From NCBI GenBank assembly GCA_963767005.1, contig CAVYCN010000019.1:108080-172079 (forward strand): a stretch of DNA of 64,000 bases, read 5' to 3'. A program made the position numbers and the translations under genes. Below, piece after piece: positions 13,190 to 64,000 of the stretch (within the stretch, counting starts at the first letter, position 1; each line of letters opens with the position of its first letter). The stretch is from an uncultured Actinomycetes bacterium. GTDB lineage: Bacteria > Actinomycetota > Thermoleophilia > UBA2241. A model generated the notes under the pieces. It made no database searches, was not told the DNA's origin, and worked only from the letters and a program-made list of their open reading frames with translations.

Positions 13190-13195
13190 CCGCCA

Positions 13196-47552: not shown

Positions 47553-47559
47553 CGGCCGC

Positions 47560-50131
47560 TCACTTGTCCTCGAGCGCAAGTTCGACCTCGCGCATCTGGC
47601 CGGTGGCGAGCTCCTCGGAGACGAGGGCGAGGCCGTGCTCGAGGCAGGTCGGCAGCGTCACCGGAAAGCCGGCCACCAGGTACGAGAGGCTCACCGTGCG
47701 CGGCTCGAGCTCGTGGTCGCCGGCCGCGCAGCGAAAGCGCGGCCGCTCGTCCGGCTCGAAGGCGGCCAGCTCGGGCCAGGGCGGCGGCACGACCTCCATG
47801 CGATGGCTGTAGGCGCTCACGACCTCGAAGCGCTCGCCGGCCGCGGCGTACTCCACCCAGTAGGTCACGCGACCGATCGTGCGAAAGCCGAGCAGCCGGC
47901 CGGTCGCCGGGTCGGCGAAGCGCCGTCCCGTGGCCTCGGAGTGGGCGATCACCTGATGGACCTCTTCGGGGCGGATGAAGCGCTGTTCGAGCAGGTCCTC
48001 GACTCTCGGCCGAGATGCACGAGCCGCTCGCGCCAGGCGCCATCGCTCGCGCCTGCTCGCCCCAGAGGTCGGCCAGCAGGCGGCGCTTGAGGAGCGCGCG
48101 CGCCTCGGCCCGCTGCGTGAGCAGCGGGCCGCGGCGCCGCGCGCGCTCGTCGTAGTCGTCGCCGAAGAGCAGGTCGAGCAGGTGGACGGTCGGCTTGCCG
48201 CGCTCGACGAAGCGGTCGCGGCACATCGCGCAGTAGGCGAGAAAGTCGGTCTCCGACGTGCCCACGCGACGGTCGGCGATGAGGTCGGCCATCTCGCGGT
48301 TCGCGTAGAGCTGCAGGCCGCCGAAGCCGCAGCACTCGGTGCGCTCGCGCGACAGGCCGAGCTCCTCGATCTCCGCACCGCAGGCCGCGAGCAGCTCGCG
48401 CACGGCGGCCTGCACGCCGGTCTGGTAGCGCGCCGTGCAGGAGTCGTGCACGGCCAAGCGGCGCCCCGCCGCCGCGCCGGCCGCGCCGGCCGGCAGCCCG
48501 ACGTCGCGCAGGACCTCCCACAGGGACACCGTCTCGATGCCGGGCAGGTGGGCCGCGAAGACCGTCTCGCAGGTCGGGCAGGCGAGGATCACGCGCGGCG
48601 TGCCGAGGCTCTCGAGCTGCGCGCGCAGGCCGGCCAGGGCGGCGTCGAAGACGCCGCCCTGGCCGGCCCAGTCGGCCGGCGCGCCGCAGCAGTTCAGCAC
48701 CAGGCCGGTGGCCGGCGAGAAGCGCTCACGCAGGTGGGCGTAGACCCGTTCCACGCTGCGCGAATCGGAGGCCGCGAGCTGGCAGCCGGGAAAGAACACG
48801 GCCGCGCTCGCCTGCGTGCCCGGTGCGTGCCGCGCCAAGGCGAACTGGTCGCTGCGGGCGAGCTCGAGGTCGCGCAGCGCGCCGTCGAAGTGCGACGCCG
48901 GCATGCGCCCCTGGCGCACCATCTCGCGGCGCGCGTCGTGGGTCACCTCGGCCATGTCCAGGTCGGTCGGGCAGACTTCGTAGCACAGACGGCACATGCT
49001 GCACGAGTCGATCATCTTGTTGAGCGAGCGCGTGCCGCGGCCCATCGTGACCGTGAGGTTGTTGTAGATGCGGCGCGCGTACAGCCCGGGGTGCGCGCCG
49101 AAGGCCTCGAGGTAGGGGCAGACCTTGACGCACTGCAGGCACTCGCACTGCAGGCAGCGCGCGGCCTCGGCGACGGCCTCGGGACGCGAGTAGCCGGCGG
49201 CCGGGTCGGCCGGCTCGGCCGGCGCCCGCGGCTCGACGCCGTCGAGCTTCACGACCATGCGCGTGCCGTACGAACCGAAGTCGCCGCGCGAGCCGCCCAG
49301 CGACACCCGCTGGAGCTGCCGCTCGATCGACAGGGCGGCGCGACGGCCGTCGGCGATCGAACCGATCGGCGACCACGGCCCGTCGGGCCGTAGCATGCTG
49401 CCGCCGCAGTAGATGTCCGGTTTGCTGGTCGCCAGGGTGACGGGGTCGACGGCGATCCGTCCCTGCTCGTCGAGCTCATAACCCAGGGCGGCGCCGGCGT
49501 CGGCCTCGGCCGTGCCCATGGCCACGAAGATAGCGTCGACGCCGGGCGCGAGCTCAGCGAGGGCGTTGGGCTTCGTAGGGTACTCGAGGGCCACCCGCGT
49601 GAACGGCACGAACTCGGCGCCCGCCGCCATGACCACGGCGCAGTCGGCTTCGAGCTCGGCCGCCGGCAGGGCCTCGCCGGCAAGCTCGCGAGCGCGGCCG
49701 CCGGGACCGTCGCGCTCCTCGAAGATCACGACCGAGTAACCCTTACGGGCGAGCTCGTAGGCGCAGGACAGGCCGGCCAGACCGGCGCCGATCACGGCGA
49801 TGCGGCCGGGCTTCTGGCGACGGAACGTCGTGGCGGGCTTGGGCGGCTCACCGTAGGCCACGGCGGCGCGCTCGATGTCGCGCACGCGGATCGCGCCGCC
49901 CCGCTCGCCCCGCACGCAGGCCGCCTCACAGGGCGCGTCGCAGCAGCGCGCGATGACGTGCGGGAAGGGCACGGCCTGCGTGAACAGCCGGCGAGCCTCG
50001 GCGAAGCCGTCCCGTGCCGCCGCCGCCAGCAACTCCCTGGCGTCGACGTGCACCGGGCAGGCCGTCACGCAGGCGGCCGGCTGGTTCTGGATGCACTGCT
50101 CCTCGAGTTGCAGCAGCCTCTTCTGGTCCAT
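47560..50131 (-). pseudogene. Large multidomain redox protein: GltD-like FeS/FAD-NAD(P) module + 2x[4Fe-4S] + two CCG (HdrB/GlpC-like) domains + unknown C-terminal domain; one frame break near 48000-48050
   Basis: Reads CVTACPVHVD...FPHVIARCCDAPCEAAC, RIAVIGAGLAGLSCAYELARKGYSVVIFE, CLQCECLQCVKVCP...CSMCRLCYEVCP, FFPGCQ...VLNCCGAP, VHDSCT...TECCGFGG. The C-terminal ~150 aa (RVEDLLEQRFIRPEEVHQVIAHSEATG...ELALEDK) lie in the frame of ORF 47560-48378. Confidence 0.7.
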
Positions 50132-50154
50132 GACACATCCACTGTTACAGACAT

Positions 50155-50195
50155 GGCCGGCCGGCGCACCTCCCGCGGGGGCACGCCGGCCGGCC
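50155..50195 (-). terminator. GC-rich hairpin between mop and the downstream redox gene
   Basis: GGCCGGCCGGCG (50155-50166) pairs perfectly with CGCCGGCCGGCC (50184-50195). The 17-nt loop itself contains CCCGCGGG. Confidence 0.4.
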
Positions 50196-50297
50196 GGAGC
50201 GCCGGCCGCCTGGCGGCGGCCGGCGCGGACTTACCGTGCCGCCGATCGACTTCGTCGTCGGCGCTCAGGCATGCGCGGCTTCGCTGCGTGCCTCGCC

Positions 50298-53039
50298 CTA
50301 GAAGGCCTGGATGTCGCGGTCCTTCATCGCCGCGAGGACCTTCTCGGGCAGGGCCGGCAGGTGCCGTACACGAGCCCCACAGGCGTCGTCGATCGCGTTG
50401 ATGATCGCCACGTGCGGAGCGGTGAGCGGCGCCTCGCCGCAGCCCGATGCGCCGTAGGGGCCGAGCGGCCGCGGCGTCTCGAGATACAGCACCGTCAGGT
50501 CGTCGGTGACGTCCTTCGGGTAGGGGATGCCGCAGGCCCGCATGTTGGTGTGCTTCTTCAGGTCCTCGAAGTCCTCGGTCAGCGCGAGACCGATGCCCTG
50601 CGAGAGGCTGCCCCACATCTGGCCGTCGACGTTCAGCCGGCTGTTGATGACGCCCACGTCGGTGCAGATCAGCAGGTGGTCGACGTAGGTCTTGCCGGTC
50701 GCCTCTTCGACCGAGACCTGCGACATGAAGACGCTGTACATCCAGTTGGGGATCGGATGGCCCTGACCGGTCTTCGGGTCGATGAGCACGCCCATCGTCT
50801 GGGTCCAGTTGCCCTCGTAGCGCAGGTCGAGGCCCTCGGCCACCATCTCGTCGTGGGTGCGGTAGGTGCCGTCGCCCTTGGCCATGGCGGCGATGAGCTT
50901 CTCGCAGGCGTCCTTGATGGCGTTGCCGACCAGGACCTGCGAACGGCTGCCGCCGGCGCCGCCGCTGTCGGGGCAGTAGGCGGTGTCGTTCAGGTCGACG
51001 CTGATCTGGTCCATGGCGAGGCCGAGCGGACGCAGCGCTTCGTGCGCCGTGCCGAGCGTGCCGCCGTCGGAGCCCTGGCCGTGGTCCTCCCAGGTGTTGT
51101 AGATGCGCACCGTGTTGTCTGCCCGCAGCTCGGCCGCGGCGTTGGCCACGTCCTCGCCGTCGCCGCCGGCGCCGAAGATGCCGAGCGAGATGCCAATGCC
51201 GCGCTTGATGCCGGCGGGCGCGGGCTCGTCTTTCCAGGCCTTGGCCTTGTCCCAGTAGGGCTTGACCATGTCGAAGAGCTTCTTGAACGAGTAGACCTCG
51301 TACTCCTGGCCCCACGAGTAGGTCGCGCCGGGCTCGGCGAGGTTCCTGTAGCGCAGCTCGAACGGGTCCATGCCCATCTTGCGGGCGAGCTCGTCGACGA
51401 TGCTCTCGCCGGCGAAGAAGGCCTGCGGCGAGCCCCAGGCGCGGAAGGGGGCGCCCCAGCCATGGTTCGTGCGCACCAGGTGGCCGTCGCCACGCATGTT
51501 GGGGATGTTGTAGCCGCCGCCGCAGAGCATGCCCTTCTGCACCAGGTTGTCGCCGAACTCCATGTACGGACCGTGGTCGCACCACCAGTGGTTCTCCATG
51601 GCGAGGAACTTGCCGTTCTCGTCGGCGGCGAGCTTGCAGTGGTACCAGTGCGGCGAGCGCTTGCCGGTGTAGGCGATGCTCATCCAGTAGTCGTACTTGA
51701 GGTAGACCGGCCGACCGGTCGCCATGTGGGCGGCGCCGAGCAGGGCCTCCATCGTCGGGCAGAACTTGTAACCGAAGGTGCCGCCCGTGTTGTTCTGCAC
51801 CATGCGCAGGTTCTCGAGCTCGACACCGAGGCCCTCGTTGATCATCGCCGCGTGGAAGTTCAAGGCCACGCTCTTGGAGTGGATCGTGAGGCGGCCTTCC
51901 TCGTCGGTGTAGGCGAAGCCGCAGTCGGGCTCGAAGTACAGGTGCGGCTGGCGCTGCAGGTAGTACTTGCCTTCGACGACGTGCGCCGCCTTCTCGAAGA
52001 TCGGGTCGGTCTCCTCACCCTTGATCAGGTTCTGGGTGAAGAACATGTTGGGCGTGCCGGGGTAGATGTCGATCGCGTCGTCGGCCATGGCGTCGAGCGC
52101 GTTCATGTACGCGGGCAGCTCCTCGAGCTCAACCTTGACCTTGGGCACCGCGGCCAGCGCCTGCTCGATCGTGGTAGCGCAAACGATCGCCAGGGCGTCG
52201 CCGTACTGGAAGACCTTGGTGTCGCACAGGATCGGGCGCTCCCAGCCGTCGGCCATGACGTCGTCGGGGTACATGACGAGGCCGTTGATACGGTTCTTGC
52301 CCTTGACGTCCTTGTGCGTGACGACCTTGAAGACGCCCGGCATCTTCTCGGCCTCGGACACGTCGATCGAGATGACGTTGGCGTGCGAGACCTGAGCGTG
52401 GACCACGGCGCAGTGCAGCGTCTCGGGGGGCATGCGCAGGTCGTAGTCGGCGCCGTAGAGCATGGTGCCGGTGACCTTGGCGAGGGCCGACGGCTTCGGG
52501 AAACGGGTGTTCCAGATGTGGCCGTCCTCGGGTACCTTGAACGTGAGCTCGTCCTCGCTCATCTCGCCGCGCAGCACCTTGGCGGCGTCGAGCACGGCGT
52601 CGACGAGCGGCTTGTAGCCGGTGCAGCGGCAGACGTTGGCGTGCTTCTGCCACCAGTCGCGGACCTCTTCGCGAGTCGGGTCCGGGTTCTCGTCGAGGAG
52701 CGCCTTGGACGAGACGATGAAGCCCGGCGAGCAGTAGCCGCACTGGGCGCCGCCGTGCAGGATCCAGGCGAGCTGCAGGGCGTGCAGCTTGTCGGGCGTG
52801 CCGATGCCCTCGATCGTCGTGATCTGCGACTCGGCCGGCACGCGCTTCATGGTCGTCGTGCAGGAGCGCACGACCTTGCCGTTCAGGATCACCGAGCAGC
52901 AGCCGCACTGGCCCTGGCCGCAGGCGACCTTGGTACCCAGCAAGCCGACCTGACGACGCAGCACGTCGCTCAGCTTCTGCCTGGGATCGACGATCACGAT
53001 CGTCGGGATCCCGTTGACGTTGATCAGCTTCTTGTCCAT
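50298..53039 (-). CDS. mop: Aldehyde oxidoreductase, Desulfovibrio Mop type (2x[2Fe-2S] + molybdopterin-cytosine-dinucleotide domains, no FAD domain)
   Basis: Intact at 913 aa. Near-colinear with D. gigas MOP as I recall it: VNGIP...GTKVACGQGQCGCCSVILNGKVVRSC...EGIG...LHGGAQCGYCSPGFIVS...CRCTGYKPLVDAV...KDVKGKNRI...PILCD.KVFQYGD...ELPAY...GGTFGYKF...TGKRSP...WEDHGQG...GGSRSQ...GASGCGE...PEKVL. ATG 53039 is preceded by GAGGAG. Confidence 0.92.
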   Translation of the reverse strand: MDKKLINVNGIPTIVIVDPRQKLSDVLRRQVGLLGTKVACGQGQCGCCSVILNGKVVRSCTTTMKRVPAESQITTIEGIGTPDKLHALQLAWILHGGAQCGYCSPGFIVSSKALLDENPDPTREEVRDWWQKHANVCRCTGYKPLVDAVLDAAKVLRGEMSEDELTFKVPEDGHIWNTRFPKPSALAKVTGTMLYGADYDLRMPPETLHCAVVHAQVSHANVISIDVSEAEKMPGVFKVVTHKDVKGKNRINGLVMYPDDVMADGWERPILCDTKVFQYGDALAIVCATTIEQALAAVPKVKVELEELPAYMNALDAMADDAIDIYPGTPNMFFTQNLIKGEETDPIFEKAAHVVEGKYYLQRQPHLYFEPDCGFAYTDEEGRLTIHSKSVALNFHAAMINEGLGVELENLRMVQNNTGGTFGYKFCPTMEALLGAAHMATGRPVYLKYDYWMSIAYTGKRSPHWYHCKLAADENGKFLAMENHWWCDHGPYMEFGDNLVQKGMLCGGGYNIPNMRGDGHLVRTNHGWGAPFRAWGSPQAFFAGESIVDELARKMGMDPFELRYRNLAEPGATYSWGQEYEVYSFKKLFDMVKPYWDKAKAWKDEPAPAGIKRGIGISLGIFGAGGDGEDVANAAAELRADNTVRIYNTWEDHGQGSDGGTLGTAHEALRPLGLAMDQISVDLNDTAYCPDSGGAGGSRSQVLVGNAIKDACEKLIAAMAKGDGTYRTHDEMVAEGLDLRYEGNWTQTMGVLIDPKTGQGHPIPNWMYSVFMSQVSVEEATGKTYVDHLLICTDVGVINSRLNVDGQMWGSLSQGIGLALTEDFEDLKKHTNMRACGIPYPKDVTDDLTVLYLETPRPLGPYGASGCGEAPLTAPHVAIINAIDDACGARVRHLPALPEKVLAAMKDRDIQAF

Positions 53040-53377: not shown

Positions 53378-56092
53378 TCAGCCGACCGGCACGGCCGCCG
53401 GCTCGTCGGCGGGCGCGGGCGCCTTTTCGATGCGCACCGCGCAGACCTTGAACTCGGCCGTCTTGGTGACCGGGTCGAAGGCCGAGTTGGTGAGCTCGTT
53501 GACCGGCGATTCCTTGTAGTGGAACGTCATGAAGCAGACGCCCGGCGGCACGATGTCGGTCACCGTCACGTGCGTCGTGATCGAGCCGCGCCGCGAGCTC
53601 ACGCGGGCCACGTCGCCCTCGGCCAGGTCGAGCCGTTCGGCGTCGACCGGGTTGATCTGGGCGAGCTCGTGGGGCCGCAGGTTCTCGAGGTTGGCCGAGT
53701 GCCGGGTCATGATGTTGTAGTGGTAGAGCATGCGCCCGGTCGTGAGCAGGATCGGGTACTCGTCGCTGCAGAGCTCGGCCGGCGCCTCGTACTCGATCCC
53801 CTGCAGCAGGCCCTTGCCACGTGTGAACCTGCCGACGTGCAGGAACCTGGTGCCCGGATGCGACTCGTCGGGGCAGGGCCACTGCAGGCCGACCTGATCG
53901 ATGCGCTCGTAGGTGATGCCGGCGTACTGCGGCACCAGGGCGCGCATCTCGTCGAAGATCTCCTGGGGCGAGTCGTAGTGCACCTCGTGGCCAAGGCGGC
54001 ACGAGAGGTCGGCGATGATCTGCCAGTCGGGGCGGCACTGCCCCGGCGGCTCGACCGCCTTGCGCACGCGCTGCACGCGGCGCTCGGTGTTGGTGAAGGT
54101 GCCGTCCTTCTCGGCGTAGCAGGCCGCCGGCAGGAACACGTCGGCGTACTTGGCCGTCTCGGTGATGAACAGGTTCTGGACCACGAGGAACTCGAGGCTG
54201 TCGAGAGCCTTGCGCACGTGGTTGGCGTCGGCGTCGGTGAGCGCCGGGTCCTCGCCCATGATGTACATCGCCTTGAGCTTGCCGTAGACGGCCATGTCGA
54301 GCATCTCGGGGATGCGCAGGCCCATCTTCTCGGGCAGCGGCACGCCGTAGGCGGCCGCGAACTTCGCCCTGGCGGCCTCGTCGTTCACGCTCGGGTAGCC
54401 CGGGTACGAGTTGGGCAGAGCGCCCATGTCGCAGGAGCCCTGCACGTTGTTCTGGCCGCGCAGCGGATTGACGCCGGCGTTCTCGACGCCGATGTGGCCG
54501 GTGACCATGGCGAGGTTGGCCAGGTTCATGACGTTGGCCGTGCCGGTGGTGTGCTCGGTGATGCCGAGCGTGTAGAAGATGCCGGCCTTGGGCGTGTTGG
54601 CGTACAGCTCGGCGGCCGCGCGGAGCTGCTCGACCGCCACGCCGGTGATCTCGGCGACGCGCTCGGGCGGGTAGTCCTTGACAACCTCCCAGAGGCCGTC
54701 GAACCCCTCGCAGCGCTCGGCGATGTAGGCCTTGTCGTGCCAGTCGTTGCTGATGATCAGGTAGAGCAGTCCGTTGACGAGCGCGTTGTCGGTGCCGGGC
54801 TTCAAGCGCAACCAGATGTGGGCGAGCTCGGCGAGCTCGGTGCGCCGCGGGTCGGCGACGATCAGCTTGGCGCCGTTCATGGTCGCGGCGCGCTTCATCT
54901 TGTTGCCGATGATCGGGTGCGCCTCGGGGGCGTTGGACCCGATGATGAACAGCACGTCGTCGAACTCGATCTCGCCGATCGAGTTGGTCATCGCGCCTGA
55001 ACCGAGCGTGGCGGCCAGACCGGCCACCGTCGGAGCGTGTCAGGTACGTGCGCAGTGATCGATGCTGTTGGTGTTCAGCCCCGCCCTCGTCAGGCGCTGC
55101 AGCAGGTAGTTCTCTTCGTTGGTGCAGCGCGCGGAGCTGAGCACGGCGAGGGCGTCGGGCCCGTCGCTGTGCTTGATCTCGAGCAGGCGCTTGGCGGTGT
55201 AGTCGAGCGCCTCGTCCCAGGTCGCCTCGACGAACACGCCGTCGCGCTTGATGAGCGGCGTCGTCACGCGGTCGGGGCTCGAGATGAGGTCGGTGTGGAA
55301 GCGGCCCTTGACGCACAGCGCGCCGGCGTTGACCGGCGCCTCGTAGTTGGCCGTGACGCCCACGACCTCGCCGTGGGCGACGTTCAGGTCGAAGTTGCAG
55401 CCGACGCCGCAGAAGGGGCAGGTGGTGCGCACCTTGGTGCGGTCCCAGCTCCGCGTGCCCTTGAGCTGCTTGTTGACGAGGGCGCCGGTCGGGCAGACGT
55501 CGACGCATTGGCCGCAGAAGCGGCAGAAATCCTGGTCGAGGGCGTGATCGAACGACGAGGTCACGGTCGACTCGAAGCCGCGGCCGGCGAAGTCGACCGC
55601 GCTCGTCACCTGCACCTCGGCGCAGACCCGCACGCACTTGCCGCAGAGGATGCACTTGTTCTGGTCGCGCTCGATCAGGTGGTTGACCGAGTCGATCTCG
55701 AGCTGCTTGGTGGCGCCCTTCACGAAGCTCGTGTGGTCGACGCCGTAGCGATAGCAGTACTCCTGCAGCAGGCAGTCGCCGGCCTGCTCGCAGATGAGGC
55801 AGTCCTGGGGGTGGTCGGAGAGCAGCAGGTCGAGCACCGTGCGGCGCGCGTCGACCACGCCCTCGGACTCGGTGAGCACGACCATGCCCTCGGTCACCGG
55901 CGTGGCGCAGGCGGCCGCCAGGTTGGGCCGGCCCTCGATCTCGACGCTGCACAGACGGCAGGCACCGAAGAGCGAGAGGTTCTTGTCGTAGCAGAGGGCG
56001 GGGATGTCGATGCCGACGCTCGCCGCCGCGTCGAGGATGGACGTGCCCGGCGGGACGCTGACCGCCCGACCGTCGATCACCAGGTCGACCAT
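53378..56092 (-). CDS. fdhA: Formate dehydrogenase alpha subunit (NuoG-like 2Fe-2S/4Fe-4S N-terminus + Mo/W-bis-PGD domain), selenocysteine encoded by in-frame TGA at 55040-55042
   Basis: Track ORFs 55040-56122 and 53378-55027 are in the same frame, separated only by a TGA. The junction reads NSIDHCART-[TGA]-HAPTVAGLAATLGSGAMTNSI, matching the FdhF-type ...CAR-x-U-H-x-P-(S/T)-V motif. N-terminus: VDLVIDGRAVSVPPGTSILDAA...CYDKNLSLFGACRLCSVEI. Likely start is ATG 56092 (or 56098), after GGAGGG. Confidence 0.88.
55010..55039 (-). promoter_or_regulatory. SECIS-like hairpin immediately 3' of the in-frame UGA
   Basis: The RNA reads UGA CACGCUCCGAC GGUGGCC GGUCU GGCCGCC. This is a 7-bp stem (one G-U) starting 12 nt after the UGA. 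The GGUCU apical loop resembles the E. coli fdhF SECIS loop. Confidence 0.65.
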
Positions 56093-56204
56093 ACTCATCC
56101 CTCCACGTCCACGGGGAATCACTGCCGCGCGCCTGCGAGCCGCGCGCCTGCGCCGGCGTTCCGGATGAGACCGGGCCGGCGGGCTTGTGGCCCGCTTCGC
56201 AATC

Positions 56205-56222: not shown

Positions 56223-56407
56223 TTCCGCGCGGGCGCGGCCAACGGGCGCGCGACTGCGGCCCGCGGACGTCGACCACCGCACCGTCCGCATCCGGCCCGA
56301 CGTGCTCGGACGCGACGTGGCCACATGTCCAAGAGAAGACGTCGCGGTTCTGCCACACCGGCGCGGACTCGCCTTGCCTGGGCTCCGCCCCGGACATAGA
56401 ATCCGCC

Positions 56408-56512
56408 CTGTCTCCGAGCCCGGGAACCCTAAGGACCTGATTGGTCTAAGGACCTTGGGCCGGTAGGGTACAGCGCGAAAGCGCCGTGTCTCCCAGTGCG
56501 GAAAGGAGATGG
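56408..56512 (+). promoter_or_regulatory. Moco (molybdenum cofactor) riboswitch-like aptamer
   Basis: The 5' end reads CCUGUCUCCGAGCC and the 3' end GCGGAAAGGAGAUGG. These can pair as P1 (56408-56415 with 56505-56512). A GAAA-tetraloop hairpin GCGC-GAAA-GCGC lies at 56473-56484. Tetraloop-receptor-like CCUAAG (56428-56433) and UCUAAG (56445-56450) are present. These are the features I recall for the Moco RNA motif (Rfam RF01055). It sits 170 nt upstream of a Mo/W-related operon. Confidence 0.7.
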
Positions 56513-56565
56513 CGCCGTCACGGCACCGTCCGCCCGACGCGGGGGTCGTGACAGCCCGCGCTTGC

Positions 56566-56657
56566 GGCCGGCCTCGAAGACGGCAGGCCGGGGGAGCGCC
56601 GGCCATCCTCTTCTCTTTCTCTTCTGGGCGCAGCGGAAGAGGCCGCGTGGCCTCTTC
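56566..56657 (+). terminator. Possible riboswitch expression platform: stem-loops followed by a pyrimidine/U-rich tract, with mutually exclusive pairings near the RBS
   Basis: CCGGCCU (56568-56574) pairs with AGGCCGG (56585-56591), and GGCCGG (56566-56571) with CCGGCC (56599-56604). AUCCUCUUCUCUUUCUCUUCU follows at 56605-56625. GAAGAGGCC (56636-56644) can pair either with GGCCUCUUC (56649-56657) or, via GAAGAGG, with CCUCUUC (56607-56613). RBS GAGAGGAG is at 56667-56674. Confidence 0.35.
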
Positions 56658-56683
56658 AGGTCGAGTGAGAGGAGTCATCGAAC

Positions 56684-57607
56684 ATGAGCAACCGCAGGCA
56701 GGGCATCGTACTTCTCGTCGTCGCCGTCCTGGTGGCAGCGGGCGTCATGCTGGCAATCGGCGCCGCTCCTGGCGCGACCGGCAAAGCGAGCGCCGCCCCC
56801 ACGACGTCGCCGTCGCCCTCGGCCAGCCCCGTGCTGCAGGTCGACCGCAACGGCCACAAGGTGGCGAGCTACACCCTCGACCAGATCAAGGCCTTCACCG
56901 CCGTTGCCACCTACGCCGGCTGGCGGGGCGGCTCGGCGCACGGTCCCGACGCCGTGACAGGCGCGGCCATTACCGACATCCTGAGCGCCGCCCTGGGCAC
57001 GCCGCTGACGACGGTCGAAAGCCTCCAGATCGCCGAGGTCCCGATCCAGCCGTCGGGTTACTCGCAGACCTTCAGCGGCCCGCAGATCATCGATCCCAAG
57101 GACAACTACGGGATGGTCGACTCGACCGGCACGCCTATCCCGCCGGCGAGCCTGACAGGCACGATCGCCGCCGTGCTCGTGTATTCGGATCCCGACGGAA
57201 ACGTCATGTCCGCCTCGAGCGGTCCGCTGCGCTCCTTCATGACCGATTCCGTGCTCGCCGACGGCGCATTCACGGTCGGTCAGAACAGCGTCTCGTCGGC
57301 CAACCTCCTGAACGTCATCGACGCCATCAAGATCACCTGCAAGCCCAGGCCGCGCGTCGTCACGCTCGGCAAGTCGTGCGCGTTCCGCGGCGTCGTGACC
57401 AACGCCATCGCGACCAACAAGTGGGTGGCCGTGCGCATGGTCAAGAACGGCAAGTTCGTCCTCAAGGGGACCGGCAAGGTCTCGGCGACCGGCGCCTACC
57501 GCATCGTGATCAAGCCGGGGAGGGTCGGCAAGCTCCACTTCGTCGTCACGTACCGGGCCGGCGCGATGTTCTTCAGCAAGGCGGTGACGATCACCGTCCA
57601 TAAGTAG
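56684..57607 (+). CDS. Exported protein P1: one sulfite-oxidase-fold-like (molybdopterin-oxidoreductase-like) module plus C-terminal Ig-like domain
   Basis: Signal/anchor MSNRRQGIVLLVVAVLVAAGVMLAIGAAPGA, then a PS-rich linker. Module: VASYTLDQIKAF...HGPDAVTGAAITDILSAALG...SGPLRSF, paralogous to the N-modules of P3 and P4. C-terminal beta-rich ~90 aa. Intact at 307 aa. Confidence 0.6.
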   Translation: MSNRRQGIVLLVVAVLVAAGVMLAIGAAPGATGKASAAPTTSPSPSASPVLQVDRNGHKVASYTLDQIKAFTAVATYAGWRGGSAHGPDAVTGAAITDILSAALGTPLTTVESLQIAEVPIQPSGYSQTFSGPQIIDPKDNYGMVDSTGTPIPPASLTGTIAAVLVYSDPDGNVMSASSGPLRSFMTDSVLADGAFTVGQNSVSSANLLNVIDAIKITCKPRPRVVTLGKSCAFRGVVTNAIATNKWVAVRMVKNGKFVLKGTGKVSATGAYRIVIKPGRVGKLHFVVTYRAGAMFFSKAVTITVHK

Positions 57608-57664
57608 CGATCGGACGCGGCGCCCTCGGGGTCGAACGACCCGCGGGCGGCCGCGCAGGCGGCG

Positions 57665-57706
57665 GACCGGTGGCGTCGGCTCCGCGCGGAGCCGACGCCA
57701 CCGGTC
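57665..57706 (+). terminator. 19-bp perfect GC-rich hairpin (GCGC loop) between P1 and P2
   Basis: GACCGGTGGCGTCGGCTCC (57665-57683), loop GCGC, then GGAGCCGACGCCACCGGTC (57688-57706). No U-tract. Confidence 0.45.
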
Positions 57707-57762
57707 GTCCCCGCGTCGCGGCAGCGGTCGCGCGCGGCAGGTGAAGGAGGCCTGACACGGTC

Positions 57763-59355
57763 ATGAGCGCATCCATCGCGCGTCACAGGGCGGCTCGGCG
57801 GGGCCGCGGCGCCGCTGTCTGTGCGTCAGCGGCGCTCGCCGCGGCGTGGCTCCTGCTCGGCGTCGTGTCCGTCGCCGGCGCGGCGCCGGCGACCCCGGCC
57901 GCTGGGACGGGCGCGACGGCCCAGGCCTCGCCGGCGACGACGGACGCGCAAGCCGCGTCCTCCACACCGTACGGCTGGGTCGTGCAGCTGCGCGGCGTGC
58001 TCAGCAGAGATCTCACCTCCGGTCAATTCGCCGCGCTCGCGGCCAAGTACTCGATCTGGAACGACGGCACCGACACCTGGACCGGCGTACCGCTGTGGCG
58101 TCTGGTCGCGCTGGTCGACGACAAGAACGCGGCCACGTTCGACGCGAGCCTGGCCAAGAAGGGCTACTCGATCCAGGTCGTCGGCCTTGGCGGCGTGGTG
58201 ACGCTGACGAGCGCCGACGGGCTGTGGGTCGGCAAGAACGGCGTGCTGGTCGCCGACCTCGAGGATTCGCTGCCCCTGGCATTCGGCACGCTGGCCGGCG
58301 CGACGTGGACGCCGACGTGGCCGGCCGAGCTCGTCGGCGCGGGCTTGACCGCCGATCGGCAGCTCGGCGGTGTCGTGCGGGTCATCGTATACAAGCCGGG
58401 CGTCAAACCGCCGGCAAGCCCCACGGTCCAGCCGAGCTGGGTCGTGCAGGTGCGCGGTGGCCTGAAGAGCGTCGACGACTCGGCCTCGCAGTTCCGCGCG
58501 CTCGCCAAGGCTCACCCGGTGAGCTGGACCGACACGGCCACCTCAGCCAAGTACACGGGCACGCCACTGTGGCGCCTGGTCGCCCAGGCCGACGGCGGCA
58601 GCCCGACCGCGCTGAACCTCGACCTCCTCGGCCTTGGCAACCTCGCCGCCCCCGGCGTGGGGTACAGCGTCGACGTGGTCGGCATGGGTGCGTCGGGCGC
58701 CACCACGACCACGGTCACGGCCTCGCAGTTCGCCGCCTCCAACAGCGTGGTCCTGGCCGACCGCCAGGGCTCTCCGCTCGCCCAGCTCACGCCGCTCGCC
58801 GGCACCGTCACAGGGTTGGACCCGGACTACGCCTGGACGCCGACCTGGCCACTGCGACTCTGCGGCACCGGCGTGACCACCGGCCAGGGCGGCGTGCTGC
58901 GCGTCGTGATCCACCGGCCACCGGTGCCGTCGTACGTGGTGCCGCTCACGCTGGTCGGGAGGCGCACGGTGAAGATCCCGTATCTCGCCTTCCCGACGTC
59001 GGTCACCTGGGACGGCCGCAAAGCCGGCAACATCAACCCCCAGCTCCGGGCGCTGTACCGCGGCCAGGCGCTGGACAAGCTGATCGGCCTGGTCGACGAC
59101 AAGGACCCCAAGACGTTCAACGCGACGCTCGCGCGCAAGGGCTACAAGATCGAGTTCATCGCAAGCGACGGCTACAAGTGGACGATCAGCAGCAAGACGG
59201 TCGTCGGCCGGACGCACTGGATCGTCGCGTCGCTCAAAGACGGCGCGACCATGGCGTCGGGCGAGGGCCCGTACCGCTATGTCGGATCGTTCATCAAGCC
59301 GTTCTACGGCAAACCGTCGGTGTACAAGCTCATCAAGATCAAGCTGATCTTCTAG
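57763..59355 (+). CDS. Exported protein P2: three tandem sulfite-oxidase-fold-like modules
   Basis: Signal with an RR pair: MSASIARHRAARRGRGAAVCASAALAAAWLLLGVVSVAGA. Three repeats carry W-T-G-(V/T)-PLWRLV...D, KKGY.I, P(L/A)RL/ELVG and VVRVIV / VLRVVI / LIKIKL endings. Intact at 530 aa. ATG is preceded by GAAGGAGG. Confidence 0.6.
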   Translation: MSASIARHRAARRGRGAAVCASAALAAAWLLLGVVSVAGAAPATPAAGTGATAQASPATTDAQAASSTPYGWVVQLRGVLSRDLTSGQFAALAAKYSIWNDGTDTWTGVPLWRLVALVDDKNAATFDASLAKKGYSIQVVGLGGVVTLTSADGLWVGKNGVLVADLEDSLPLAFGTLAGATWTPTWPAELVGAGLTADRQLGGVVRVIVYKPGVKPPASPTVQPSWVVQVRGGLKSVDDSASQFRALAKAHPVSWTDTATSAKYTGTPLWRLVAQADGGSPTALNLDLLGLGNLAAPGVGYSVDVVGMGASGATTTTVTASQFAASNSVVLADRQGSPLAQLTPLAGTVTGLDPDYAWTPTWPLRLCGTGVTTGQGGVLRVVIHRPPVPSYVVPLTLVGRRTVKIPYLAFPTSVTWDGRKAGNINPQLRALYRGQALDKLIGLVDDKDPKTFNATLARKGYKIEFIASDGYKWTISSKTVVGRTHWIVASLKDGATMASGEGPYRYVGSFIKPFYGKPSVYKLIKIKLIF

Positions 59356-59440
59356 GAGACCGAAGGTCCGGCGACGAACTCGTCGGGCGGGGCCCGCGGA
59401 GGGCAACGGCCGCGAGGCCATGCACGAAGAGAGGGGAGCC

Positions 59441-60583
59441 ATGAAGAGGCGCAGAGACCTGATGACCCTGGTGGTCGTCGCCGCGATCCTCGCCGCCAGC
59501 GTCGTGCTGGCCGGCAGCGTCGCACGCGGGGCGACAGGCGGCGGGACCGCTCTCGGCGTCTCGCCCTCACCGTGGCCGTCGCCGTCGCCGAGCGTCGTGC
59601 TGCAGGTCGGCCACGACGGCACGTTCGTGAAGGAGTACACGCTGGCCGACCTCGAGGCGCTGCCGGCGTCGGACCCGGGCACCGCCGTGTTCAACGGCTA
59701 CGCCGGCTTCATGAACACCGGGAACATCGTCTACGGCCCCGATGCCGTGTCGGGAATCACCCTGTCCGACGTCCTGCAGGATGCGCTGGGGGCGCCGCTC
59801 GGCGCGAACCAGTCGGTGCAGTTCATCGGGTCCGACGGCTACGTGCAGACGTACTCCGACGCCCAGCTGACCAACGTCGACCAGATGACCCAGCTGTACA
59901 ACGCGACCACCAAGGCACCGGTGTCGTCGACGAGCTACACGGGACCGTTCGCCACGGTCCTCCTGTACGCCGACAACACGCCTGGCGGCCAGGTGTTCAA
60001 CCCTGATCCGCCGCCCGCCGGCGACGGGCCCCTGCGCCTGGCGGTCGCCGACGCCACGAACGAGAACGTCGTCATGACCGGCAGCGACAGCGTCAAGTGG
60101 CTCGTCAAGCTGAACGTGCTCGACTCCGTGCCCAAGGACTGGAGCCTCAAGCTGACCGGGCTCAAGATCAAGGGCGTGCGGCAGACGCGCACGATCAGGC
60201 GCAACGACTACTCGAGCTGCCTAAGCTGCCACGAGTACTCGCACAAGGGCCAGTACACGACCCTCGGCCACAAGTGGAGCGGCGTGCCGCTCTACATGCT
60301 GATCGGCGAGGTCGACGGCGGCAACACGATGACCTTCAACGCCGCGCTCGCGAAGAAGGGCTACCGCATCGAGGTCATCACCTCGAAGGGCCAGAAGCGC
60401 TACGTGAGCTCGCGCCTGATCGTCTACAAGGGCGAGGGTCGGCGCAAGGTCGTGCTCGCCTGGACCCGCGACGGCCTGACGCTCCCCAGCAGCTCGTTCC
60501 CGCTGCGCCTGGTCGGTCCGACCCTGCTGTCGTCGCAGGAGATCGGCCGCATCACGCGGGTCGTGCTGCTGCCCGCGAAGTAA
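59441..60583 (+). CDS. Exported protein P3: two sulfite-oxidase-fold-like modules, second one with CLSCH (CxxCH) motif
   Basis: Signal: MKRRRDLMTLVVVAAILAASVVLAGSVARGA. N-module: YTLADLEALP...YGPDAVSGITLSDVL...GSDGYVQTY...GDGPLRLAV...SVKWLVKLNV. C-module: DYSSCLSCHEY...KWSGVPLYMLIGEVDGG...LAKKGYRIEVI...FPLRLVGPTLLSSQEIGRITRVVL. I prefer ATG 59441 (after GAGAGGGGAG) to the track start at 59420. Confidence 0.6.
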   Translation: MKRRRDLMTLVVVAAILAASVVLAGSVARGATGGGTALGVSPSPWPSPSPSVVLQVGHDGTFVKEYTLADLEALPASDPGTAVFNGYAGFMNTGNIVYGPDAVSGITLSDVLQDALGAPLGANQSVQFIGSDGYVQTYSDAQLTNVDQMTQLYNATTKAPVSSTSYTGPFATVLLYADNTPGGQVFNPDPPPAGDGPLRLAVADATNENVVMTGSDSVKWLVKLNVLDSVPKDWSLKLTGLKIKGVRQTRTIRRNDYSSCLSCHEYSHKGQYTTLGHKWSGVPLYMLIGEVDGGNTMTFNAALAKKGYRIEVITSKGQKRYVSSRLIVYKGEGRRKVVLAWTRDGLTLPSSSFPLRLVGPTLLSSQEIGRITRVVLLPAK

Positions 60584-60594
60584 CAAGAAGACGG

Positions 60595-60631
60595 GGGTGG
60601 GGGCGGGCTCTGAAAGAGCCCGCCCCCACCC
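60595..60631 (+). terminator. 16-bp perfect GC-rich hairpin between P3 and P4
   Basis: GGGTGGGGGCGGGCTC (60595-60610), loop TGAAA, then GAGCCCGCCCCCACCC (60616-60631). It starts 12 nt after the P3 stop. Confidence 0.5.
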
Positions 60632-60665
60632 GCCACAGGAGCGCGAGGGCGCCGAAAGGACGGCC

Positions 60666-61712
60666 ATGAGCCATCGCAGCATCGTCACGAGGCCGGCCGG
60701 TCTGATCGTCCTCGTGCTCCTCCTCCCCGCGCTCTTACTGGGCGCGGCGCTGGCCATCGGCGGCCTGGGCGGCTGCGGTGCGGCGGGATCGACCGCCACC
60801 TCGCCGAGCTCGGGCGGTCCCGTCGTGGTCACCGTCGCCGGCGCCAAGGGCAGCAAGTCGTTCACGCTGGCGCAACTCGAGGCGCTGCCCTCCTACACCG
60901 GTTACGCCGGCATCAAGGACAGCGTCGGGGTGATCACGCCGCCCACGCAGTACACGGGCGTGCCGCTCTCCGAGCTCACCGCGCAGGTCGGTGGCGTCGA
61001 CCCGTCGTACGGCGTCACGGTGCTCGCCAAGGACGGCTACGGCATGACTTTCTCGGCCGGGCAGGCGGCCGGCGGTGACTTCACGACCTACGACCCGGTG
61101 ACCGGCGCCGAGCGCTCGCCGGCCTACAAGCTCACGCTCGTGCTCGCCTACCGGCACCAGGGCAAGCCGCTCGACCCCTCCGAGGACGGCCCGTTGCATC
61201 TGGTCTTCGCCGAGCCCAAGGCCGACGTTGTGGTCGACGGCCACTGGTCGGTGCGCTGGGTCGACCGGCTCGAGGTCAAGAAGTCGCTCGGCCAGTGGCA
61301 GGTGGCGGTGCAGGGCTACACGAGCTCGACGCTCACCCAGGCGTCGTACGTTTCGTGCGCCTCGCCCGGCTGTCACGGCAGCGAGTACTCAGACACCTCG
61401 GGGCAGCGCTGGACCGGCATCCCGCTGTGGCTCGTGGTCGGATCGGTCGACGACGGCCGCACCCACGGTGCCGGGGCCTTCGACGTGAAGCTGGCCCGGA
61501 AGGGCTACCGGATCGAGCTGATCGCCGCGAACGGCGTCACGACCTTCTTGAGCTCGCGCGACCTGCTCAGGCACAAGAACTGGATCCTGGCCGGACAGAT
61601 GGACGGTGAGACGCTGACACCCGACTACTTCCCGCTGCGCCTGGTCGGACCGGGCCTCACCGACGACCAGTCGATCGGGCGCATCACCGAGGTGCGACTG
61701 CGCTCCGGCTGA
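60666..61712 (+). CDS. Lipoprotein P4: two sulfite-oxidase-fold-like modules, second one with CASPGCH (Cx4CH) motif
   Basis: Lipobox in MSHRSIVTRPAGLIVLVLLLPALLLGAALAIGGLGGCG. N-module: FTLAQLEALP...QYTGVPLSELTAQVG...AKDGYGMTF...EDGPLHLVF...SVRWVDRLEV. C-module: YVSCASPGCHGSEY...RWTGIPLWLVVGSVDDG...LARKGYRIELI...FPLRLVGPGLTDDQSIGRITEVRL. ATG 60666. Confidence 0.6.
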   Translation: MSHRSIVTRPAGLIVLVLLLPALLLGAALAIGGLGGCGAAGSTATSPSSGGPVVVTVAGAKGSKSFTLAQLEALPSYTGYAGIKDSVGVITPPTQYTGVPLSELTAQVGGVDPSYGVTVLAKDGYGMTFSAGQAAGGDFTTYDPVTGAERSPAYKLTLVLAYRHQGKPLDPSEDGPLHLVFAEPKADVVVDGHWSVRWVDRLEVKKSLGQWQVAVQGYTSSTLTQASYVSCASPGCHGSEYSDTSGQRWTGIPLWLVVGSVDDGRTHGAGAFDVKLARKGYRIELIAANGVTTFLSSRDLLRHKNWILAGQMDGETLTPDYFPLRLVGPGLTDDQSIGRITEVRLRSG

Positions 61713-61720
61713 GGGTGATC

Positions 61721-62860
61721 ATGGCAGGTTGCAGGCGGGTGGGAGCGACGACAGCGGTGCGGCGCGTTTGCGCGATCGCTGCGCGCGCGCTGCTCGCCGC
61801 GGCGCTCCTCGCCGCAGCGCTGCTCGGCGTGGCGACGCTCGCCGGCTGCACGCACGGCACACACGACAAGACGCTCTCGCTGGTCGACGCCGACAGCCTC
61901 ATCATCCCGTTCGCGCACCTGGCGCAGGCCTATCATCGGGCCCATCCGGGCGTGCAGGTCGAGACCGAGACGCACGGCAGCATCCAGACCATCCGTCAGG
62001 TCACCGACCTGGGTCGCAGCTTCGACGTGCTCACCTCGGCCGACCCGTACCTGGTCACGCTCATGATGGAGGACGCCCGGCATCCGACCGCCGGCTGGTA
62101 CGCCGTCTTTGCCACGAACCGCATGGTCCTCGCCTGGTCGCCGCACAGCCGCTTCGCGGCGCTGTTCCGTTCGGGGGACTGGGTCAAGGCGATCACCACG
62201 CCGGGTGTGCAGCTCGGCCTGGCCGACCCACGCTTCGACGCGACGGGCTACCGGGCCCTCATGGTGCTCGCGCTGGCGCAGCGCTATTACAACGACGACC
62301 ACCTGTTCGCCGACGTCACGGTCGGCCGGTTCTCGCCGCCGATCACGCTGACGAGCGAGCGCGACGGCCGCGAGGTGATCGACGTGCCCGAACTCCTCGA
62401 GGCCGCGTCGGGCACGGGACTCGTGCTGCGCGACACCGCCATCGAGCTCGAGACGCTGCTCGAGGCGGGCGACATCGACTGTACGTTCGAATACGAGAGC
62501 GTCGCTCGTCAGCACCACATGCCGTTCGTGTCACTGCCGGCCGCCGTCGACCTGGGCTCGCAACGCTACGCCACCGAATATGCGAAGGTCGCGGTCGCGA
62601 CGCCGTTCCAGCGCTTCGCGAGCGTCAAGCCGCTGTTCGTGGGCGCACCGATCGCCTACGCGGTGACGATCCCGAGCACGGCCCGGAACACCGCCGAGTC
62701 GGAGCGGTTCATCGCCTTCCTGCTCGGCCCCCAGGGCCGCGCCATCCTCGCGGCCGACGACCAGCCGAGCGTGACGCCGGCGCTCGTCGACCACTACGCG
62801 GCGCTGCCGGCGTCGCTGCGGGCGCTCTGCCGGCCGCTGCAGCCTGGGCAGGCGCCGTGA
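61721..62860 (+). CDS. wtpA: Tungstate/molybdate ABC transporter substrate-binding lipoprotein, WtpA-like
   Basis: Lipobox LLGVATLAGC. Reads ETHGSIQTIRQVTDLGRSFDVLTSADPYL...WYAVFATNRMVLAW...LGLADPRFDATGYRALMVLALAQRYYND...LEAGDIDCTFEYESVARQHHMPFVSLP...PIAYAVTIPSTARN. This follows the WtpA pattern as I recall it from archaeal WtpA and is distinct from the two ModA copies here. Confidence 0.7.
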   Translation: MAGCRRVGATTAVRRVCAIAARALLAAALLAAALLGVATLAGCTHGTHDKTLSLVDADSLIIPFAHLAQAYHRAHPGVQVETETHGSIQTIRQVTDLGRSFDVLTSADPYLVTLMMEDARHPTAGWYAVFATNRMVLAWSPHSRFAALFRSGDWVKAITTPGVQLGLADPRFDATGYRALMVLALAQRYYNDDHLFADVTVGRFSPPITLTSERDGREVIDVPELLEAASGTGLVLRDTAIELETLLEAGDIDCTFEYESVARQHHMPFVSLPAAVDLGSQRYATEYAKVAVATPFQRFASVKPLFVGAPIAYAVTIPSTARNTAESERFIAFLLGPQGRAILAADDQPSVTPALVDHYAALPASLRALCRPLQPGQAP

Positions 62861-62892
62861 GCGCACGGGTCGAACGGTCGAGGAGCGCGAGG

Positions 62893-62936
62893 GGCGGGGC
62901 GGCGGCGAGGCCGCGCGGCCTCGCCGCCGCCCCGCC
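62893..62936 (+). repeat. 20-bp perfect inverted repeat (GCGC loop) followed by TTTT, located between wtpA stop and the first supported codons of wtpB
   Basis: GGCGGGGCGGCGGCGAGGCC (62893-62912), loop GCGC, GGCCTCGCCGCCGCCCCGCC (62917-62936), then GCCTTTTCGG. Confidence 0.7.
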
Positions 62937-62984
62937 GCCTTTTCGGTCCTTTCCGGGGCGCTCGGCTTCGTCCTGCTGCTGTTC

Positions 62985-63722
62985 GTGGCGGCGCCGCTCG
63001 TCGCCCTGGTCACCGGAACGAGCCTGCACGAGCTGCTGAGCACGCTCGGCGAGTCCGACATCCGCGCCGCTCTGGCGACTTCGGTCGAGGCCGCTGTCCT
63101 GGCTACGGTCCTCGCCGCGATCTTCGGCGTGCCGCTCGCCTACCTGCTCGCGCGCCGCAGCTTCGCCGGGAAGCGCCTGATCGAGGGCCTGATCGACCTG
63201 CCCATCGTCTTTCCGCACACCGCCGCCGGCATCGCGTTGCTGCTCGTGTTCGGTCGCAGCGGCGCCTTCGGCCGCGGCTTCGCGCATCTCGGCCTGGCCT
63301 TCACCGACACCCTGGCCGGCGTCGTCGTGGCGATGCTCTTCGTGAGCCTGCCGTTCCTGGTCGACACGGCGCGCGAGTCGTTCGCGCTGGTCGACCCCGG
63401 CTACGAACGGGTGGCCCGCACCCTGGGCGCCTCGCCGGGCGTCGCCTTCGTTCGGATCGCGCTGCCACTCGCCTGGCGCGGCGTCCTGGCCGGCGCGTTG
63501 CTCATGTGGGCGCGCGGCATGAGCGAGTTCGGCGCCATCGTGATCCTCGCCTACAACCCCAAGACGATGTCGGTGCTCGTCTATGAGCGGTTCGAGGGCC
63601 TCGGTCTGGGCGCCGCCAAGCCGGCCGCGCTGCTCATCGTGCTGCTCGCGCTGGTCGTGTTCGTCGTGGTGCGCTCGATCGGCGGGCGGGAGCGATCCGA
63701 CGGACGAGGGCGGTCCGCATGA
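62985..63722 (+). CDS. wtpB: Tungstate/molybdate ABC transporter permease, WtpB-like (N-terminus unresolved)
   Basis: Reads [36 protein letters not shown]...[20 protein letters not shown]...[14 protein letters not shown]. In-frame upstream codons (62940-62984: FSVLSGALGFVLLLF) look like the first TM helix but lack a start codon. A GTG at 62857 overlapping the wtpA stop is in another frame, implying one indel near 62935-62945. Confidence 0.75.
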
Positions 63723-64000
63723 TCGGCGCCCGCGGGCTTCAGGTGCGCGCCGGCTCGTTCACGCTCGGGCCGATCGACCTCGCCGTGGCCGACGGCGAGT
63801 ATCTCGCCGTGGTCGGTCCGAGTGGGGCCGGCAAGAGCGTGCTGCTCGAGACCCTCGCCGGCCTGCGGCCGGCCGCGGGCGGCCACGTCGTGGCCGGCGA
63901 CGGCGAAGCCGCGAACGGCCCGCCGAGCGGCCTGCGGTCGGGAGCTGGCGGAGGCGACGGCGCCGACGTGACCGGACTGCCGCCCGAGCGCCGCGGCATC
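63719..64000 (+). CDS. wtpC: ABC transporter ATP-binding protein, WtpC-like, N-terminal 94 codons, runs off the right edge
   Basis: My translation from ATG 63719 (ATGA overlap with the wtpB stop) gives [55 protein letters not shown]..., containing a Walker A motif. It is not in the ORF track because it has no stop in the window. Confidence 0.8.

Follow-up and report, generated by a model that had tools for sequence, protein, structure and literature searches.

An intriguing aspect of the 64,000-nucleotide stretch of DNA from an uncultured Actinomycetes bacterium studied here (hereafter, the window) is the long non-coding leader on its plus strand, which precedes an operon that ends in the transporter genes wtpABC; the question is whether this leader senses the molybdenum cofactor (Moco) or its tungsten counterpart, and how such sensing would reach the genes. 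The region between 56123 and 56683 has no coding signal in a frame analysis of G+C content at third codon positions (GC3), and we therefore treat it as a leader and regard the open reading frames (ORFs) that cross it as artefacts of high G+C content (about 72% for the genome). The explanation that we consider best, and rather probable as a whole, is a Moco- or tungsten-cofactor riboswitch that lacks the P3 hairpin, has its own promoter and acts as an OFF switch by sequestering the Shine-Dalgarno (SD) sequence of the first gene, g1. The features discussed below are collected in Table 1.

A Moco-type aptamer at the 5′ end of the leader

We compared the whole window with Rfam 15 (4227 families) using cmscan and found a single match above gathering threshold: RF01055, the molybdenum/tungsten riboswitch aptamer or Moco RNA motif, at 56400-56524 on the plus strand (58.5 bits; gathering score, 36; E = 1.9 × 10−11), which covers the complete model (positions 1-135). 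At a permissive threshold, no further Rfam family appeared in the leader, the only extra match being a selenocysteine insertion sequence (SECIS) in a neighbouring gene. A Moco-riboswitch-like aptamer had been proposed here in an original prediction made from the DNA letters, with the RF01055 score and covariation in homologous leaders named as checks. The score is well over the gathering threshold, and every sequence element quoted in that prediction lies exactly where it was placed (script check). The two ends of the aptamer, CCUGUCUCCGAGCC at 56407-56420 and GCGGAAAGGAGAUGG at 56498-56512, were read from the sequence and checked by script, and the conserved core nucleotides CUCCGAGCC, AGGG, CUCCC and GGAAAGGAG all align with the model in cmscan and do not vary among relatives.

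The first gene of the operon, g1 (307 amino acids), has only about 10 relatives among 5.8 billion proteins, all of them metagenomic, and the contigs that encode them share the same operon. RF01055 matches of 53.9-61.1 bits precede the g1 homologues in the related loci (labelled L plus a number) L001, L008, L009, L010 (twice) and L011; in all, matches of 51-61 bits precede homologous operons in 10 loci besides the window. Fifteen more loci were fetched from genome and metagenome collections with a DNA pattern corresponding to the 3′ part of the aptamer, the genome records being metagenome-assembled genomes (MAGs). In total, the set of relatives comprises 20 aptamers, which come from uncultured Actinomycetes/Thermoleophilia MAGs and from metagenome contigs; DNA runs that hold near-identical sequence come from peat, freshwater sediment and rhizosphere. 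Because the pattern used to fetch 17 of the aligned aptamer sequences fixed 22 of the last 23 nucleotides, including the P1 3′ strand, four more distant aptamers that were found independently through homologues of g3 were added to the alignment.

Across the resulting 21 sequences, 92.1% of the pair cells of the Rfam structure hold a standard pair, compared with 32-46% in slid controls, and each of the five measures is higher than in any of the 500 shuffles. Both sides change at 11 pairs (two in P1, six in P2, one in P2b and two in P4); P5 is invariant. Compensatory changes were found in both of the helices singled out beforehand, P1 and the tetraloop stem. One P1 pair is G-U in 16 sequences, U-A in 3 and U-G in 1, another is C-G in 17, U-A in 3 and U-G in 1, and the pair that closes the tetraloop in P4 is C-G in 16 and G-C in 5. 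An A-C mismatch in P4 is repaired to A-U or G-C in two relatives. On the basis of the RF01055 score, the covariation among the 21 aptamers and the RF01055 matches ahead of homologous operons, we regard it as practically certain that 56400-56524 is the aptamer of an RF01055 riboswitch.

Some details of the original prediction change with the alignment. The two CUAAG elements that it described as receptor-like are really the two strands of one 11-nucleotide GNRA-tetraloop receptor, CCUAAG at 56428-56433 and UAAGG at 56447-56451, which flank the P2b stem; in the UAUGG part of the receptor, the middle base is variable in this aptamer clade. The exact 10-nucleotide direct repeat in which these elements sit (CUAAGGACCU, at 56429-56438 and 56446-56455) is private to the window sequence and is not kept in relatives. 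The tetraloop element GCGC-GAAA-GCGC occupies 56473-56484. At the position of P3 there is only a short linker, and P3 is absent from all 21 aptamers; this absence assigns the aptamer to the variant that Regulski et al. (2008) proposed for the tungsten cofactor. A leader peptide or ORF that starts from the AUG inside GGAGAUGG (56509) was considered and rejected: it lies outside the frame supported by GC3 and has no spacing to an SD, and the indels in relatives are not multiples of three.

A promoter-like site stands immediately upstream of the aptamer, one of two such sites in 20 kb (0.5 expected). The arrangement TTGCC-N17-CATAGAAT is invariant in 7 aligned leaders, and most further loci have a similar −35/−10 pair that always ends 7 nucleotides before GUCUCC. 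This conserved promoter places the start of transcription at the foot of P1, probably at about 56408-56410, so that P1 would form the extreme 5′ end of the mRNA. The full 8-bp P1 of the original prediction is less well supported: with this start, the RNA probably has only six to eight of the pairs.

Several relatives depart from this arrangement. In L022 and L027, the palindrome CTAAGGA-N3-TCCTTAG lies between the −35 and −10 elements and overlaps the latter, and imperfect related versions occur in the two L028 promoters; it resembles an operator, through which a transcription factor might add a second layer of control to the riboswitch, and is absent from the window's promoter. In L004 and L005 (positions 1-220 of each), unrelated sequence stands in place of the promoter and the 5′ quarter of the aptamer (the P1 5′ strand with part of P2). 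The RF01055 score of this broken aptamer is down to 33.8 bits, and the platform and full operon are intact; the two contigs, which come from different samples, end at the same point, suggesting an insertion of repeated DNA. In L010 (7677-7800 and 9105-9228) and in L013 (two copies), the whole cassette of promoter, aptamer, platform, SD and start is duplicated before the second gene of the operon. L028 also has two aptamers (4989-5110 and 12677-12798), the second of which precedes moaA.

Table 1. Positions of the leader and operon features in the window
Feature	Position	Strand	Basis or remark
Promoter-like site: −35 TTGCCT, 17-nucleotide spacer, −10 TAGAAT	56374-56402	+	Promoter scan and conservation
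Core aptamer	56408-56512	+	
P1 5′ strand, core GUCUCC 56410-56415	56408-56415	+	Pairs with 56505-56512; compensatory changes at two pairs
P2/P2b and 11-nucleotide tetraloop receptor	56418-56460	+	Rfam alignment; covariation in 21 sequences
Linker CGGUA (5 nucleotides) at the P3 position, joining P2 to P4	56461-56465	+	P3 positions of the model deleted
P4 stem, capped by GAAA tetraloop 56477-56480	56466-56491	+	Rfam alignment; covariation
P5 (CC/GG), conserved GGAAAGGAG junction, P1 3′ strand GGAGAUGG 56505-56512	56492-56512	+	Rfam alignment
Conserved alternative hairpin, which would consume the last P1 bases and overlaps H1	56508-56530	+	97% paired, nearly invariant
GC-rich hairpin H1 (14 pairs), directly after the aptamer	56517-56552	+	Outer helix 97% paired in 14 leaders
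Second GC-rich stem region; GGCCGG-N7-CCGGCC hairpin 56586-56604 abuts the pyrimidine tract	56554-56604	+	
Pyrimidine (CU) tract, 20 nucleotides, candidate anti-SD strand	56606-56625	+	56610-56617 complementary to SD
Perfect 9-bp hairpin GAAGAGGCC-GCGU-GGCCUCUUC	56636-56657	+	Conserved
SD GAGAGGAG 56667-56674, 9-nucleotide spacer, AUG 56684-56686	56667-56686	+	
g1 56684-57607, g2 57763-59355, g3 59420-60583, g4 60597-61712	56684-61712	+	Exported paralogous sulfite-oxidase-fold proteins
wtpA 61715-62860, wtpB 62985-63722, ABC ATPase from 63719 off the window end	61715-64000	+	

The expression platform and how it may switch

The platform extends for 171 nucleotides from the end of P1 to the AUG at 56684, in agreement with the predicted distance of about 170, and its architecture is conserved in 14 alignable leaders; lengths in the lineage are 160-230, and up to 300, nucleotides. 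The second GC-rich stem region is partly conserved (55-94% paired) and is absent in L001 and L019. Nowhere else in the 64 kb, on either strand, is a pyrimidine run longer than 13 nucleotides, compared with 20 in the pyrimidine tract, which occurs in all 14 aligned leaders, in a shorter and interrupted form in L014 and L017. A conserved GGGCnGCAGCGG block separates it from the 9-bp hairpin, and GUGAGAGGAG followed by the AUG closes the platform. Twelve of the 14 aligned leaders have the same GAGG core in the SD; the other two, L014 and L017, have GAGAGAAG. As had been proposed, the GGAG of the aptamer is not the ribosome-binding site; the real SD and AUG are near-invariant in relatives.

The original prediction also contained a switchable hairpin, in which GAAGAGG (56636-56642) would pair either upstream with CCUCUUC (56607-56613) or downstream with GGCCUCUUC (56649-56657). 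The downstream half stands: among the 14 leaders, three pairs of this hairpin change on both sides, and its arms co-evolve (swap/permutation test, p < 0.0002). The upstream pairing with the CU tract can be drawn in every relative, with registers that shift between subclades (78% paired by column), but no co-evolution was detected for it in the swap test (p = 0.47), and this alternative is possible but unproven. We also considered a pyrimidine-motif triple helix between the tract and the homopurine/homopyrimidine stem of the hairpin and rejected it after comparison by eye, given that the match, CUUCUC in the window, does not recur in relatives.

A tandem duplication of about 36 nucleotides that covers the SD and start region distinguishes a subset of the relatives. 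It creates a 12-codon upstream ORF (uORF; for example, MSKRTTCEEGKP followed by a stop), the stop codon of which overlaps the main AUG (AUGA). This form is found in L001, L009, the first copies of L010 and L013, and L024; in L014 and L017 the uORF is in frame. The single-copy form is found in the window, L008 and L011.

We consider it likely that the riboswitch turns expression off. The Escherichia coli member of the family is an OFF switch (PMC2408646), and L004 and L005, in which the P1 5′ strand is missing yet the operon is intact, provide weak evidence for the same logic. That the regulated step is sequestration of the SD by the pyrimidine tract is a more tentative proposal, to which we give somewhat less than an even chance. 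Under this proposal, binding of the cofactor would lock P1, leaving the tract available for pairing with the SD over the foot of the conserved hairpin, so that initiation at g1 would be blocked; the loss of translation would probably expose the transcript to Rho and silence the distal wtpABC genes. Without ligand, the purine-rich P1 3′ strand and GGC (56504-56513), which look like an SD, would pair with GCCAUCCUCUU (56602-56612) and compete for the tract. The helix between tract and SD joins 56610-56617 to 56667-56674 (8 bp, plus 3 more) and is 86% paired in the 14 leaders. In partition-function calculations, the SD is at most 0.14 unpaired in 12 of 16 folded leaders (the exceptions being L014, L017, L024 and L026), and in most of these 12 its partner is an upstream pyrimidine-rich stretch; the distant relative L029 is similar. 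When the P1 3′ strand is free, the minimum-free-energy (MFE) structure of the window pairs 56504-56513 with 56602-56612, and the same homologous region supplies the best partner for this strand in most of the 16 leaders (46-58 nucleotides before the SD in 12).

A number of observations weigh against this mechanism. Equilibrium folding of the whole leader with P1 enforced or forbidden, and of the platform with or without a free P1 3′ strand, gave no consistent change in SD accessibility between the P1-formed and P1-open states across relatives. Neither the SD nor the P1 3′ strand has a more complementary partner in the leader than in dinucleotide-shuffled sequence (mean z = −0.9 for the SD and −0.5 for the strand; window, +0.4 and +0.3); the test is not significant, and in such C-rich leaders a partner exists for any purine run. 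The helix between tract and SD can have no covariation support, because the SD is nearly invariant. In five relatives, the SD of the platform serves only the 12-codon uORF and the main gene has a second SD of its own; it is not obvious how a switch acting on translation alone would control this second site. Given the strong hairpins in the g1-g2 and g3-g4 intervals, it is unproven that wtpABC is transcribed together with the leader, and the public RNA-seq and metatranscriptome datasets that we searched for a 5′ end or termination do not hold the locus.

The main rival for the regulated step, which we consider rather unlikely, is that the same aptamer controls transcription elongation. Either a non-canonical terminator, composed of the GC-rich stem that ends at 56604 and the U/C tract, or loading of Rho on the G-free stretch 56603-56625 would stop the polymerase, and ligand-free RNA would escape through pairing of the P1 3′ strand with 56602-56612, which would open the stem at its base. 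Regulski et al. described cases in which a terminator follows a Moco motif (PMC2408646). The GGCCGG-N7-CCGGCC hairpin abuts the tract in most relatives, with a UUUUU run at this point in L013b; in the window, the stem is followed by a mixed C/U tract with 11 U among 20 nucleotides. The MFE structure of the unbound state does open the stem base, and a seven-gene operon, as well as the uORF relatives with a second SD, would be easier to control at the level of RNA synthesis. However, L001, L011 and L019 retain the tract, the downstream hairpin and the SD although this hairpin is missing or degenerate in them, and the G-free stretch, at 23 nucleotides, is short for a Rho utilization (rut) site. 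Riboswitch platforms in Actinobacteria are, moreover, mostly translational. No canonical intrinsic terminator was found on the plus strand between 56000 and 57000, which is only weakly informative because canonical terminators are no more frequent in this genome than chance predicts (5 found, 4.5 expected). A switch of the opposite sign, in which the cofactor turns on the synthesis of sulfite-oxidase-fold apo-enzymes that need it, appears improbable to us. The Oxidored_molyb domains in g3, g4 and the wider family indicate that the first genes may be cofactor users, and the folding models show the SD of almost every relative as sequestered by default; but end-product repression is expected of an operon that holds a metal transporter and, in relatives, moaA, moaC and mog, the characterised family member represses, and the loci with a broken P1 (L004 and L005) keep intact genes.

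The operon and the ligand

The metal-transport assignment of the last genes rests on wtpA, which narrowly passes the TIGR03730 cut-off (244.3 bits compared with 242.75), on WtpB as the best permease match of wtpB and on a Walker A motif in the last ORF, the ABC ATPase. Weak Oxidored_molyb domains were found in g3 and g4. No Pfam family matches g1, the AlphaFold model of which (mean pLDDT 74) has the sulfite dehydrogenases SorT and SorA as its best matches in the Protein Data Bank (PDB); a sequence search of g2 and g4 against the PDB returned nothing useful. The g3 family comprises more than 150 metagenomic proteins, labelled in their sources as YedY-like molybdopterin-dependent oxidoreductases. 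In relatives, the riboswitch precedes the same operon, and in distant g3-family clusters the order is P3-less aptamer, two unknown genes, two sulfite-oxidase-fold genes, binding protein, permease, ATPase with a TOBE domain, Mop, moaA, moaC and mog. A tungstate/molybdate ABC transporter accompanies the operon family in every case, and moaA, moaC and mog often do so too.

Two features of these genes may bear on their products and transcripts. In g3 there is CLSCH, a CxxCH haem-c-like motif, and in g4 CASPGCH just before the W(S/T)G(V/I)PL core; g1 has no cysteine in the equivalent domain. The hairpins between genes are perfect and GC-rich (57668-57707, about 18 bp, between g1 and g2; 60593-60631, about 17 bp, between g3 and g4; both on the plus strand) and could be processing, stabilizing or U-less terminator elements. 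The second overlaps the listed GTG start of g4, the real start of which may be the ATG at 60667.

With P3 absent and an operon that ends in wtpABC, the question of tungsten raised in the original prediction was an apt one, and we lean slightly towards the tungsten rather than the molybdenum cofactor as the ligand. Regulski et al. (2008) divided the Moco motif into P3-containing and P3-lacking forms and found the latter to be near-perfectly correlated with genes for tungsten transport and use (PMC2408646); the genes of P3-lacking motifs also include sulfite-oxidase-like ones (PMC2408646). Wco is listed as a riboswitch class by the Breaker laboratory (PMC5473149). The window aptamer fits this Wco/Tuco class in lacking P3 and in its association with tungsten genes, support that is circumstantial. 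Aptamers of the same clade are followed in L026 by a TupA-like, tungstate-type binding protein (145.9 bits, below the equivalog cut-off of 400) and in L016 by WtpA/B-like genes, and two bona fide modA/modB pairs in the window have no riboswitch (cmscan of the 64 kb).

It is also quite conceivable, at a little under even chances, that the aptamer senses the molybdenum cofactor, or both, and that the absence of P3 is a feature of this lineage of Actinomycetota and not a determinant of specificity. Against tungsten stands the fact that every aptamer of the lineage (21 of 21) is P3-less, including the one before moaA-moaC-mog in L028, so that the loss could be a lineage trait. Deletion of P3 alone did not switch specificity in E. 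coli, and discrimination between the tungsten and molybdenum cofactors has never been demonstrated biochemically for any P3-less member (both PMC2408646). WtpA-type proteins bind molybdate as well, according to Bevers (2006) as cited in PMC2408646, the score of the window's WtpA is barely above its cut-off, and genes for molybdoenzymes (aldehyde oxidoreductase and formate dehydrogenase) abound nearby. What speaks for tungsten and against this alternative is the published correlation, the TupA-like neighbour of the same aptamer clade and the two ModAB systems that lack a riboswitch.

The wider window holds further genes of metal and cofactor metabolism. To the left of the leader, and divergent from it, is the alpha subunit of a NuoG-fused formate dehydrogenase (53378-56122, minus strand), with an in-frame TGA (55042-55040) within the active-site motif HCART-U-HAPTVAGL. 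A SECIS_3 match coincides with the TGA codon (54987-55045, minus strand; 47.5 bits, below the gathering score of 63; E = 4 × 10−9), and, judged from its sequence, this is one selenocysteine enzyme gene and not two ORFs. Beside it, 46746-53039 (minus strand) encodes a Desulfovibrio-type molybdopterin aldehyde oxidoreductase (NF045668, 1489 bits), a flavoprotein of the 'dicluster protein near Sec' family (NF045663, 814 bits) and a DUF364/DUF4213 'heavy-metal chelation' protein; together with the formate dehydrogenase, these genes form a Mo/W/Se enzyme island. The two molybdate-type ABC systems lie at 38535-39476/37653-38534 (minus strand) and 33178-34434/34427-35317 (plus strand). Both ModA proteins are above the TIGR01256 cut-off, the second with a C-terminal TIG/IPT domain, and the 64 kb thus contain three group-6 oxyanion transporters. 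Farther away, an MtmB-family methyltransferase beside a corrinoid (B12-binding) protein (11804-13843, minus strand), near a proline racemase, points to a predicted anaerobic metabolism of methylated amines or betaine.

Relation to known riboswitches

The aptamer is a member of a family that has been known since 2008, the P3-less variant included, and its recognition here is annotation rather than discovery. It extends the P3-less class to uncultured Actinomycetota of peat and sediment, and links the riboswitch with an operon for exported proteins of the sulfite-oxidase fold that is conserved but uncharacterised. Within one 64-kb stretch, the transport systems are partitioned, WtpABC with a riboswitch and two ModAB systems without. 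The tandem cassettes, the 5′-truncated aptamer and the uORF leaders are natural variants for a test of ligand specificity; the organisms are uncultured, so the question is no more testable here than elsewhere. A bolder view is doubtful: that the platform is a new kind of long-range relay, in which the GGAAAGGAG strand of P1 is an SD decoy and rivals the real SD in pairing with a single pyrimidine tract, and that the regulon is an unrecognised tungsten-acquisition or tungsten-pterin enzyme system of anaerobic Actinomycetota. If this were true, the lineage would provide a clean natural test bed for the molybdenum-versus-tungsten specificity of P3-less aptamers.

Platforms in which an upstream pyrimidine strand sequesters the SD, coupled to Rho-dependent polarity, have reportedly been described, an example being that of Hollands et al. 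in 2012. The leader shares with them an anti-SD-like pyrimidine tract, the lack of a canonical terminator and a multi-gene operon that needs polarity; by comparison, the distance from aptamer to SD is unusually long here, and the switching helix is a prediction.

With the Moco riboswitch of E. coli moaA (PMC2408646), the window aptamer has in common the core of P1, P2 with its receptor, P4 with GAAA and P5, the conserved nucleotides CUCCGAGCC, AGGG, CUCCC and GGAAAGGAG, and a presumed end-product repression. In E. coli, however, P3 is present and the GGAG in the P1 3′ strand is the ribosome-binding site, whereas here there is no P3 and the GGAG lies 160 nucleotides from the SD and could serve at most as a decoy that occupies the anti-SD tract.

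The closest parallels are the P3-less Moco RNAs proposed as Tuco or Wco, such as the triple array of Syntrophomonas wolfei and the transporter leader of Pelobacter carbinolicus (PMC2408646), which share the RF01055 fold without P3 and a position upstream of tungstate/molybdate ABC transport and sulfite-oxidase-like genes. The gap between aptamer and ORF is long in S. wolfei, as it is here, and repeated copies per operon also occur in the relatives L010, L013 and L028. In contrast to those examples, the riboswitch of the window belongs to another phylum (uncultured Actinomycetes/Thermoleophilia, with about 72% G+C), has a lineage-specific platform with a pyrimidine tract and a co-varying purine/pyrimidine hairpin, and precedes an operon that starts with four exported paralogous proteins of the sulfite-oxidase fold.

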